DNA of 64,000 nucleotides from a bacterium (GCA_965213685.1 CBDBZY010000031.1:192001-256000), one strand, 5' to 3'. Shown: positions 8,091-12,237, counted from the first letter of the stretch. A program made the numbers and translations. The notes: generated by a model not told the origin, from the sequence alone.

Positions 8091-10466
8091 TCAGAATTCC
8101 TTTCGCAAGCCCACCAGCAGGTTGAGCGCGAGGTCCGATGCCGCGTGCCCCGGATTGTGCGAAACGACCGCCTCCGCCCGCAATTCGCCGTCGAACAGCC
8201 CCCGTCCGACCCAGCGGGCCGTCAAGTCAACCTGCCTGCCGGAGGGAACGAGGCCTGCCGAGAACGATTCGCGCAGGACGGCGCCGTCCCGGGTGCGTCC
8301 GATCGGCAGCGTGATCCGCGCCGACCCGTTTTCTATCCGCGGCGGCTGGGACAGCGCAAACGTGATCTCGTCGCGCCCCCAGAACCGGCTGGCGCGCAGC
8401 GAAAGCGCACTCGTGGTCAGCTGCGAGAAGCCGTCGATGACGCCGCCGGCCGCACCCGGTGCGACCAGGCCGACCTCGGCGTCGAGGACGAGGCGCCACC
8501 CTCCCCATTCGGCGGCCGCCTCGAACCCGGCGAAAACGTTGTCGGCCGAAAGCCTCCCGAAGGCGCCCTCCGCCGTGGAGCCGAGGACGCTTTCCTCCTC
8601 CCGAAGCCACCCGACGCGCACGCCGAACGGAGCGTCCGGCGGTCGCCAGGCCAGGTATGCGCCCACTTCCGACGCCTCGTTCGAGAGCGGGTCGGCGGCG
8701 GCGAACGTCGCCGCCTCGAGGCCGCCCCGCGCCTGGAAGGCGAAGGTCGCGGCGCCCTCCGCGAGGTTGAGCAGACTGCTTTCGGCATTCGCCGGCGACT
8801 CGTGGAGGCCGAACCGCCATGCGCCCAGGCGGACGGCGCGCGCACGCGCGCCCACCGTCATCCGCGTGCCGCGCGCGGCGGGCCAGGCGCCGACCCCCTC
8901 CCGGGGCGATGAGACGGGACGGCCGACCCGCGTCAGGGAAGAGGGGCGGGCGGCGGAGCCGGTGAACTGCGAAGCCTCGAACCAGAACGGCGCGCCCAAG
9001 GCGTCGAACGCCGCTATTTCGCGCCCGGCCAACGAGCGCGAGAGGCCGTCCCCGAAGGCGGCGCCCGTCCTGAAGCGGGTGGCCTGTATGTCGGGACCGC
9101 CGCCGCCGACCCGCCCGCCCATGCTGACCCGCGCCGCCTCCACCGGCGAGACCGCAGCGCCCAGGTCCATCGCGCCCTGCCCGTAGATGGAGGAGGTGCC
9201 GTCATCCCGGTCGGCCGCGTATACGCCGCTCTTGTCGGCGGTCGCGAAAAGCCGCGTGACCAGGTCCCTGTTGGAGAGCTGGCCGCGAAAGAACTGCTTC
9301 ATCAGCGCGAGGCCGCCGGCGACCATGGGCGCGGCGAAAGAGGTGCCATAAGTGATGCCGTATAGGAACTCTCCGGGCTGGGGCGGAGGGGAGCCGAAAA
9401 ACGCGACCGTGACGTCGACGCCGGGGGCGGCGATGCACCAGCGCCCGGCAATCCCGCAGCGGTTGGAAAAATCGGCGATCTCCCCGTCCCGATCCAAAGC
9501 CACCACGACGACGCTATGGCCCCGGAGTTCGGGCAGCCGGGCAACCGCCCCGCCGTCAATGCTGGGCGAGGTCGCCCGGTGGGCATAGCCCGTAGGACTT
9601 GCCGAATCGGAAAAGCAGTTCTCATCAATCCCCGGACTGCAGGGTCTGCCGTGGGTGTTGCCTGCGGCCCAGACAAAAATCGCCGGATCCGCCACGCCCC
9701 TCTGCGCGATCACCTCGAGTTCCCGGCCAAGCGCGGCGCGCAACGCGTCTGCGTCATGGTTCTCGATGAACGCGTCGGGGGTGCCGTAGCTGTTGTTGAC
9801 GATGTCGACGCCGCTTCGCAACACCTCCCGATACGCGTCCGCGTAGTCGAACGAACTCTTGCGCGGATCATCCCCTGGGAGGTGAGGGCCGATAGGTATG
9901 GTGAACACCTTGAAGTGGGCGTCGTGGGCGATGCCGACGAAGCCCGCCCCGTTCGGCTGTGCGGCCATGACGCTCGTGACGGCGGTGCCATGCGAAGACT
10001 CACCCAAACGGAAATCCCCATGCTTCTCGTCCGGCAGCCCCTGGAGGCGGATTTCCGTCAAGCTCGCACCCTCGAGCTCGTAATGGGTGAGGTCGACCCC
10101 CGTATCTATGACGCCGATGGTCACGCCGGTTCCGGGCTTCGTCTCCGCGCCGTGCTTCACGGCGAGTGCCGCATGGGCCTCGTGCGCGTTGACGCTTCGG
10201 AGTCCCCACTGCCCCGGGAATTCGCGCCCCCCGCTGGATCCTCCGCTGAATTCGAAGTCCGCGAGAATATCAGCGGCGCGCGCATCCCGAAGGCGGAGGA
10301 ACGCCTCCTCCGAGATGCATCCATGAGCGGCGGTCTCGACGCAGGGAACGACAGGGGCAGGCGCGGCAGTCCGTGAACCGCCGCCGCCCCCGCCGCCGCA
10401 GCCGGACAGGACAAGGAGGAACGACAGCCCGAGGCAGGAGGCAAAACCGCGAGTGCGAACGAACAT
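8091..10466 (-). CDS. S8 subtilisin-like serine protease, lipidated, with probable C-terminal autotransporter beta-domain
   Basis: AAAGGAG RBS; lipobox LSGC plus poly-Gly; triad VIDTG/HGTAV/GTSFAAP; AAGN; C-terminal Phe (GLRKEF). Confidence 0.9.
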   Translation of the reverse strand: MFVRTRGFASCLGLSFLLVLSGCGGGGGGGSRTAAPAPVVPCVETAAHGCISEEAFLRLRDARAADILADFEFSGGSSGGREFPGQWGLRSVNAHEAHAALAVKHGAETKPGTGVTIGVIDTGVDLTHYELEGASLTEIRLQGLPDEKHGDFRLGESSHGTAVTSVMAAQPNGAGFVGIAHDAHFKVFTIPIGPHLPGDDPRKSSFDYADAYREVLRSGVDIVNNSYGTPDAFIENHDADALRAALGRELEVIAQRGVADPAIFVWAAGNTHGRPCSPGIDENCFSDSASPTGYAHRATSPSIDGGAVARLPELRGHSVVVVALDRDGEIADFSNRCGIAGRWCIAAPGVDVTVAFFGSPPPQPGEFLYGITYGTSFAAPMVAGGLALMKQFFRGQLSNRDLVTRLFATADKSGVYAADRDDGTSSIYGQGAMDLGAAVSPVEAARVSMGGRVGGGGPDIQATRFRTGAAFGDGLSRSLAGREIAAFDALGAPFWFEASQFTGSAARPSSLTRVGRPVSSPREGVGAWPAARGTRMTVGARARAVRLGAWRFGLHESPANAESSLLNLAEGAATFAFQARGGLEAATFAAADPLSNEASEVGAYLAWRPPDAPFGVRVGWLREEESVLGSTAEGAFGRLSADNVFAGFEAAAEWGGWRLVLDAEVGLVAPGAAGGVIDGFSQLTTSALSLRASRFWGRDEITFALSQPPRIENGSARITLPIGRTRDGAVLRESFSAGLVPSGRQVDLTARWVGRGLFDGELRAEAVVSHNPGHAASDLALNLLVGLRKEF

Positions 10467-11804: not shown

Positions 11805-11897
11805 TGGCGGAGAGGGGGGGATTCGAACCCCCGAGGCACCTTGTGGGCGCCTATACGATTTCCAGTCGTACTCCTTCGGCCTCTCGGACACCTCTCC
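11805..11897 (-). tRNA. tRNA-Ser(GGA)
   Basis: GGAGAGG/CCTCTCC acceptor stem plus GCCA, anticodon loop CT-GGA-AA, long variable arm, GGTTCGAATCC T-arm. Confidence 0.97.
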
Positions 11898-11957: not shown

Positions 11958-11986
11958 TTGACTTTTCCCCTCCTTTCCCCGATGAT
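11958..11986 (+). promoter_or_regulatory. Putative sigma70 promoter for the small RNA/sORF unit
   Basis: TTGACT-17 nt-GATGAT. Confidence 0.4.
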
Positions 11987-12017
11987 TCCCGGTACGTCAG
12001 AAAGGAGGTGATCCTAT

Positions 12018-12056
12018 ATGAAAACAGACTGTAGGGACGAGGTGGCTGGCGCTTAG
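12018..12056 (+). CDS. Putative 12-aa peptide MKTDCRDEVAGA
   Basis: ATG correctly spaced behind a perfect extended Shine-Dalgarno; TAG at 12054-12056. Confidence 0.45.
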   Translation: MKTDCRDEVAGA

Positions 12057-12128
12057 GGGAGAGAACCCTGAGGAGGTTCCCGGGGTCATCTTCGCCCAGG
12101 CGAATCCCCACCAGCCCACCGCAAAGGT

Positions 12129-12158
12129 GAAACCCCGGCCCGGGAGGGCCGGGGTTTT
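12129..12158 (+). terminator. Intrinsic terminator
   Basis: GAAACCCCGGCCC-GGGA(GNRA loop)-GGGCCGGGGTTTT. Confidence 0.8.
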
Positions 12159-12237
12159 CGCAACTTTCGTGCGCGGGGAAAACCGCCAAGGCTTCCTCCC
12201 GCATTTTTCCGAATGCTTAGATAAGGAGCGTGTCCGC

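Follow-up and report, generated by a model that had tools for sequence, protein, structure and literature searches.

A predicted small RNA gene with a 16-nt complement of the 16S rRNA 3' tail: a probable divergent Ms_IGR-5 family member in a Nitrospinota-labelled phylum

Our analysis of a 64,000-nt stretch of bacterial DNA (the window, C31:192001-256000 of assembly G000) points to a small RNA gene of about 168 nt, predicted to form a unit of its own with a promoter, a 12-codon open reading frame (sORF), covarying helices and a terminator. We think it likely that this element is present in one copy, is transcribed independently as an RNA of the Ms_IGR-5 family, and works like the rre-type small mRNAs, which carry an extended Shine-Dalgarno (SD) sequence. 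The features that enter into this reading are listed below, with positions counted from the first base of the window.

11805-11897, minus strand: tRNA-Ser(GGA), found by ARAGORN; divergent conserved neighbour, outside the RNA
11958-11963 and 11981-11986, plus strand: candidate sigma-70-type promoter, TTGACT, 17 nt, GATGAT (promoter scan)
11994, plus strand: predicted transcription start, an A
11995-11998, plus strand: P0 5' strand CGTC, transcript nt 2-5; pairs with 12036-12039 and abuts the anti-tail block
11999-12014, plus strand: 16-nt extended SD, AGAAAGGAGGTGATCC, perfect complement of the genome's own 16S tail
12018-12056, plus strand: sORF of 12 codons plus TAG (ATG at 12018, TAG at 12054-12056), predicted peptide MKTDCRDEVAGA; frame open in relatives
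12036-12039, plus strand: P0 3' strand GACG, whose last base opens GAGGTG; pairs with 11995-11998
12039-12044, plus strand: invariant SD-like GAGGTG, followed after exactly 9 nt by the stop codon (comparison of copies)
12041-12049, plus strand: P1 5' strand GGTGGCTGG, within codons 8-11 (covariation)
12051-12057 with 12095-12101, plus strand: P2, stop codon included (covariation)
to 12062/12089, plus strand: P3, a long hairpin continuing P2, with apical stem 12065-12074/12078-12086; P2 and P3 together span 12050-12102 (folds)
12101-12110, plus strand: CGAATCCCCA, conserved and mostly unpaired, separating P2 and P1 on their 3' side
12111-12120, plus strand: P1 3' strand CCAGCCCACC (covariation); in relatives CAGNUCACC, resembling the 16S tail itself
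12131-12141 with 12146-12156, plus strand: predicted intrinsic terminator, capped by GGGA; T run at 12155-12158 (fold, covariation)

Assembly G000 (contigs C1-C71) is composite, with one group of contigs at 63-69% GC, which includes the window's contig and the sole 16S gene found, and another at 42-54% GC, which includes C64 (1.64 Mb, 44% GC). Its size is 7.97 Mb, compared to 2.9-4.6 Mb in genus relatives.

A single 16S gene was found in the assembly; it lies on the same contig as the element and ends in ...GCGGCTGGATCACCTCCTTTCTAAGGAG. The reverse complement of AGAAAGGAGGTGATCC is identical to this end (16 of 16 nt), so that the tail complement claimed in the original prediction holds for the genome's own 16S rRNA. 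Outside the rRNA gene, the 16-mer occurs once in the 71 contigs, compared to about 0.004 occurrences expected by chance for one 16-mer (our own arithmetic, taking 16 Mb for both strands). The next longest tail match has 14 nt and comes from the other GC group (a contig at 46% GC); the 13-nt tail matches on the 63-69%-GC contigs have no start codon after them. A minus-strand fragment of a 16S gene is ruled out, as the similarity ends after 16 nt.

The predicted duplex between the block and the 16S tail has an energy of -29.9 kcal/mol, compared to a mean of -7.5 and a minimum of -20.6 kcal/mol for ordinary upstream windows of long ORFs (1500 sampled of 4161). By this energy model, the pairing of the block is far stronger than that of ordinary SDs; the mean unpairedness of the block in the predicted ensemble is just 58%. 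Variation within the 16 nt among relatives is mostly from A to G opposite U, which retains a G-U pair. Two genomes of other phyla with such variants have a 16S tail identical to that of the window genome, and A-to-G variants opposite an unchanged tail fit selection for pairing along the whole tail. For G026, G035 and G127, the search for 16S tails gave no match to the 16S motif in the assemblies.

Both ends of the proposed unit agree with what the original prediction had described. The promoter scan finds the TTGACT-17-GATGAT candidate at 11958-11986 (one observed, 0.2 expected), and the spacing of TTGAC and NATNAT is unchanged in relatives, where conservation of the RNA sets in at the predicted start A. 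At the other end, the GNRA-capped terminator stem folds strongly with its GGGA loop and covaries, with 98.2% of alignment cells paired and changes on both sides at five pairs; the list given for the window by a consensus terminator scanner does not include it (12131-12158). The 8 nt after the stem contain four T residues in the window copy and five in relatives. The fold z-score of the RNA at 11990-12165 is -3.44. The tRNA gene that had been placed back-to-back with the unit is the minus-strand tRNA-Ser(GGA). On the same strand as this tRNA, a 791-residue ORF at 8091-10466 resembles, as judged from its translation only, a secreted protease of the subtilisin type that is extended at its C-terminus.

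The short frame, likewise found as described from ATG to TAG, is held in a fixed register at its end and a looser one at its start. Exactly one start codon falls 4-15 nt after GGAGG in each of 20 representatives, and in all 20 it is in frame and open to the stop. The window ATG is 3 nt after the tail complement and 9 nt after GGAGG; relatives use ATG or TTG at 7-14 nt after GGAGG, and only L111 has a GTG directly after GATCCT. The length of the sORF across lineages ranges from 10 to 14 codons. The arrangement GAGGUG-N9-stop is present in 40 of 40 distinct copies (a regex-based count that left out L015, which has a 1-nt insertion in the block) and in all five further loci, with UAG, UGA or UAA as the stop.

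Helix P0 joins the four bases just before the tail complement to the four whose last is the opening G of GAGGTG. Its strands pair in 59 of 60 cells over 15 distinct strand combinations from several phyla, compared to 4-34 of 60 in slid controls. The compensatory combinations include CGUC/GACG, CAUC/GAUG, CGCG/CGCG, CGCA/UGCG, CACG/CGUG, CACA/UGUG and CACU/AGUG. Forcing P0 in the fold of the window copy costs 0.5 kcal/mol relative to the minimum free energy structure.

The long-range stem P1 had been claimed from the window alone, and it covaries: 98.3% of cells are paired, and AU/GC exchange is seen in six sequences. P2 is also 98.3% paired, with two pairs changed on both sides. Taken together, P1, P2 and the terminator are 98.3% paired with nine pairs changed on both sides, a result matched by none of 500 shuffles, and slid registers pair in 27-57% of cells. 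This alignment (A1) includes L015; it leaves out L020, which has the same sequence as L019, and L027, which is cut by the contig start. In L027 (G033:C63), only 30 nt of the contig precede the sORF, and the initial ~25 nt are unlike the SD block of relatives, a mismatch that probably reflects the edge of the assembly. For P3, where the alignment is too gapped for counting, we relied on folds of single sequences from divergent members.

Two smaller stems of the original prediction fared less well. The GGGGA/TCCCC stem is 71% paired in relatives with no change on both sides, and the stop-codon region pairs as P2 instead. The TTCGC/GCGAA hairpin is kept (94.6% paired) but is incompatible with P2. 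Because it shares bases with the P2 and P3 3' strands, this hairpin is a candidate alternative fold that could form after a ribosome opens P1 and P2; we also examined it by folding the RNA with the sORF held open. Between the 3' strands of P2 and P1, the segment G/CGAAUCC is near-invariant in this phylum and also appears in the consensus of Rfam family RF02471 and in copies from other phyla. A tRNA-like reading of GCGAAUCCCCACCA was dropped, as no tRNA or tmRNA model matched and the distances do not fit a T-arm.

The design of the element matches that of the rre small mRNAs of alpha-proteobacteria, as compared by published description. According to the report on Bradyrhizobium (Hahn et al. 2016, PMC5711450), rreB is a 165-nt small mRNA adjoining a tRNA-Gly gene; 17 nt of it are perfectly complementary to the 16S tail and lead into the GTG start of a 14-codon sORF. 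It co-sediments with 30S subunits, which requires the 5' extension of the SD, and it is translated weakly, the over-long SD lowering translation. The start-codon mutant has a half-life of 37 min, versus 10 min. Overexpression gave no growth phenotype, and the function was described as 'elusive'. The rre genes (rreR and others) are reported there in alpha-proteobacteria only, and the report makes no mention of Rfam or Actinobacteria. Our literature search found no follow-up work on rreB.

The likenesses are a length of ~165 nt and a separate promoter and terminator (all three predicted here), a tRNA neighbour, and a 16-17 nt perfect 16S 3' complement with an sORF after it (14 or 18 codons in rreB and rreR, 12 here). 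In rreB and rreR the complement takes in the GTG start codon's initial base, whereas the window copy has an ATG separated from the block; this start may allow better translation than in rreB. The rreB complement is also mostly paired inside a predicted hairpin, whereas here it would lie in a loop closed by P0. A further RNA of comparable layout is STAB-SD, the 5' mRNA stabiliser of Bacillus cryIIIA, in which a near-perfect SD located near the 5' end holds a 30S subunit. However, STAB-SD sits on a long mRNA with no used start codon after it, whereas the element described here has a conserved frame and appears to be its own unit.

The conserved frame could also belong to an ordinary very small protein gene, in which the 12-residue peptide is the product and the strong SD just secures its expression. 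Start, frame and stop are indeed kept in every copy, E-V-(A/T/P)-x-x-stop is kept across phyla with a Cys common 1-3 residues before it, and the RreB and RreR peptides are conserved within clades (PMC5711450). However, the kept residues E-V-(A/T/P) are encoded by GAGGUG and the P1 strand, and the residues preceding E-V change exactly in step with P0 covariation (GAC, GAU, CGC, UGU, AGU and others). The third positions of TGT, GAG and GTG are fixed in this phylum even though rarer codons are in use on a contig of 65% GC, the length varies between 10 and 14 residues, and no conserved modification or export genes are nearby. In addition, the same source (PMC5711450) reports the lowered translation of rreB noted above, and describes RreB and RreR as mutually dissimilar and unstructured in solution. 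Helix covariation was weighed against peptide conservation, a check set out with the original prediction: P0, P1, P2 and the terminator covary and the peptide letters fall in paired RNA, so that, as far as the compared copies go, the conserved letters are explained by RNA pairing. We therefore regard the small-protein explanation as unlikely. A type I toxin or RiPP precursor is out, given a polar peptide that varies, has a length of 10-14 residues and lacks conserved partner genes.

The original prediction had ranked the element as the best candidate for an undescribed system in the window, which our comparison does not support: orthologues pass the gathering score of RF02471 (Ms_IGR-5), and the class was published in 2016. 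A match to a characterised Rfam family, named with the prediction as removing its novelty, is largely what we find. The window was scanned against Rfam at a permissive E-value. The window copy gives full-length plus-strand matches to RF02471, an actinobacterial sRNA family (21.8 bits, E 0.002-0.02), and RF01867 (CC2171; 21.6 bits), but both are below the gathering scores of 45 and 75 bits, respectively, and only the tRNA passes its cut-off. Pxr, which had been named as a family to check, scores 11.5 bits on the wrong strand. The same element exceeds the RF02471 gathering score in 3 of 51 genomes of the phylum (G031, 55.1 bits; G065, 49.5; G034, 47.5), and further genomes of the phylum reach 42-43.5 bits. 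Genomes of other families give RF02471 matches in 5 of 100 cases, two of them above the gathering score.

To the sequence likeness we can add a colinear alignment, in which RF02471 model positions 1-184 follow window positions 11994-12166 through the SD block, GAGGUG, GCGAAU.CC and CAG.CACC. Shared features are the 5' ACNC start, the (A/G)GAAGGAGGUG(A/G)UCC block, GAGGUG(G/A)CUG, pairing of the stop-codon region, GCGAAUYCC, CAGNCACC and the terminator. The window copy differs in having 2-3 extra codons between the Cys codon and GAGGUG, the Rfam consensus structure as printed is without helices P0 and P1, and the host belongs to a Nitrospinota-labelled phylum rather than to the Actinobacteria.

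A covariance model built from 30 copies of this phylum only (R1, with rough E-values) closes the chain from the opposite side. With R1, the loci L077-L081 from other phyla, which RF02471 had picked up, score 34.6-50.9 bits, and there is no match on L042, a chance match (labelled Brachymonas, inside a coding region) that was dropped from all counts. Genome-wide, it finds the element in 37 of 41 family genomes and in five of seven sister-family genomes (59.6-72.8 bits; 59.6-67.2 bits on the sister-family loci), almost always as a single copy. The two other sister-family genomes score 26-29 bits, and matches in this range (G039, G040, G060) are outside the inspected set. Other families have R1 matches in 7 of 100 genomes, one of them weak. 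With RF02471 and R1 combined, inspected copies are present in 7 of 100 other-family genomes (G069, G085, G089, G104, G109, G116 and G127). We therefore place the window copy in the Ms_IGR-5 family as a divergent member, an assignment that goes step by step through its orthologues and does not come from the score of the copy itself. The family so defined spans several phyla, including the Nitrospinota-labelled one.

Earlier work on the family is consistent with ribosome engagement. Ms_IGR-5 is expressed in Streptomyces (PMC8079986, PMC8780764), and ribosome footprints lie on its homologues in M. abscessus and M. smegmatis (PMC4974804). The accessible portion of the literature naming Ms_IGR-5 or RF02471 yielded no mention of an extended SD. 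By analogy with the 30S co-sedimentation and weak translation of rreB, and given the footprints on Ms_IGR-5 homologues, the original suggestion of a ribosome-binding RNA with a small ORF fits the element.

CC2171, a Caulobacter sRNA, may be a further relative in design. Its consensus opens with GAAAGGAGGUGAUCCAG-UG, a 17-nt tail complement running into GUG, and has a long-range helix and a terminator; the match to the window copy is confined to the SD block and the terminator, and the GAGGUG/CGAAUCC core is not visible. From these features, CC2171 is probably the Caulobacter analogue of rre. Our literature search found no statement of its consensus as a 16S-tail complement running into GUG. 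The RNA is expressed in Methylorubrum, as shown by Northern blot (bioRxiv 10.1101/2022.01.24.477521).

A different role for the RNA would be base pairing with target mRNAs through the unpaired CGAAUCCC or the A-rich 5' loop, possibly as a dual-function sRNA, with ribosome binding being secondary. We hold this to be very unlikely. The unpaired CGAAUCC is kept across phyla and the gene stands alone with its own terminator, as would suit such an sRNA, and the RF02471 family was reportedly first recovered in a study with heterologous Hfq. However, the strongest conservation is in the 16S-tail complement and the register of the frame, which a seed model leaves unexplained.

DNA search finds the element in 34 of 61 genomes: 22 of 22 in the genus, 33 of 36 in the GTDB family and none of 24 outside the family, and identity of 81-88% within the genus runs from the -35 box to the T run. 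A pattern scan of a species collection returned 25 loci, of which 24 are true copies; their MAGs, where labelled, carry the names Nitrospinota or Nitrospinaceae. Nothing relevant was found in a plasmid collection by blastn with a 132-nt query (five records, none with query coverage above 25% or with E below 1).

The element is head-to-head with a tRNA gene in every family copy that has upstream sequence. Among 32 distinct true copies the partner is tRNA-Ser(GGA) in 27 and tRNA-Cys(GCA) in 4, and one copy is cut by a contig end. The partner switches among genera, being tRNA-Ser(GGA) in most and tRNA-Cys(GCA) in g2/g7, and in L026 and L047 the tRNA has an integrase-like ORF on its far side. At the sister-family loci L066, L073 and L113-L115, a conserved CTTGACTTTCGT lies right after the terminator T run and probably serves the following transcription unit as its -35 region.

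Downstream of the element, in the window and most of the genus, ytoQ follows on the same strand, and the original prediction had raised the possibility that the sORF and terminator form a leader peptide or attenuator controlling it. A comparison of 88 scanned ORFs at loci of this phylum gives a different picture. The next gene encodes YtoQ in the window and L009, but HemE in L026, L029, L030 and L047 and an HTH-cupin protein in L025, these being other genera, and it is convergent in L022 (2-hydroxyacid dehydrogenase), L024 (amino-acid kinase) and L028 (PNPOx). Since the downstream genes vary and some are convergent, the element stands alone and is no ytoQ leader; moreover, no conserved antiterminator was found among the copies, and the terminator is strong and constant. 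We give the attenuator explanation almost no credence.

We propose the following course of events for an rre-type RNA of this family. By sequence and comparison, P0, a helix of 4 bp, closes a loop that displays the 16-nt tail complement together with one start codon, and the frame of 10-14 codons crosses P0, P1 and P2 before its stop exactly 9 nt past GAGGUG. A 30S subunit could dock on the displayed block through a duplex of ~16 bp (-30 kcal/mol), and a docking duplex of this size would keep the RNA mostly ribosome-bound. Initiation at the AUG would be possible without melting P0, whose 3' strand begins 18 nt after the A of the AUG in the window. Departure from the start would be slow, because of the ~16-bp anchor and because three GC-rich helices (P0, P1 and P2) must melt. 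The reading ribosome would unfold the RNA, and the alternative UUCGC/GCGAA hairpin could then form. At the stop codon, the anti-SD could re-pair with GAGGUG at an initiation-like spacing, and translation would probably trigger decay of the RNA, as measured for rreB. In our view it is the act of engaging a ribosome, and not the peptide, that is conserved. By analogy with rreB, whose overexpression gave no growth phenotype, sequestration of ribosomes is unlikely to be the purpose.

The position of P0 suggests a more specific and much more speculative model. Because P0 abuts the first base of the complement, the 3' terminus of 16S rRNA would stack on P0; a precursor still bearing its 3' trailer could not be accommodated. 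Ms_IGR-5 and rre RNAs might then be one multi-phylum class that docks on the complete mature 16S 3' end, with the short frame and its fixed GAGGUG-N9-stop register serving as one built-in 'test run' that ends with the ribosome expelled and the RNA destroyed. Such RNAs would act as a checkpoint or protective cap for idle or new 30S subunits and would carry no peptide message. We offer this model as an idea that is quite improbable as it stands.

For the window itself, the outcome is an ordinary one, a known kind of small RNA gene and no new system. For the class, which includes rreB/rreR, CC2171 and Ms_IGR-5 and has been present in transcriptomes and Rfam for more than a decade without a function, the window copy and its relatives link the actinobacterial Rfam family to the extended-SD idea and carry that idea into a Nitrospinota-labelled phylum as well as into other families, with copies in at least 7 of 100 genomes sampled there. 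In addition, they set constraints for any mechanism: a helix, P0, beside the anti-tail block; a frame of variable length with a fixed GAGGUG-N9-stop; and peptide letters that pairing explains.
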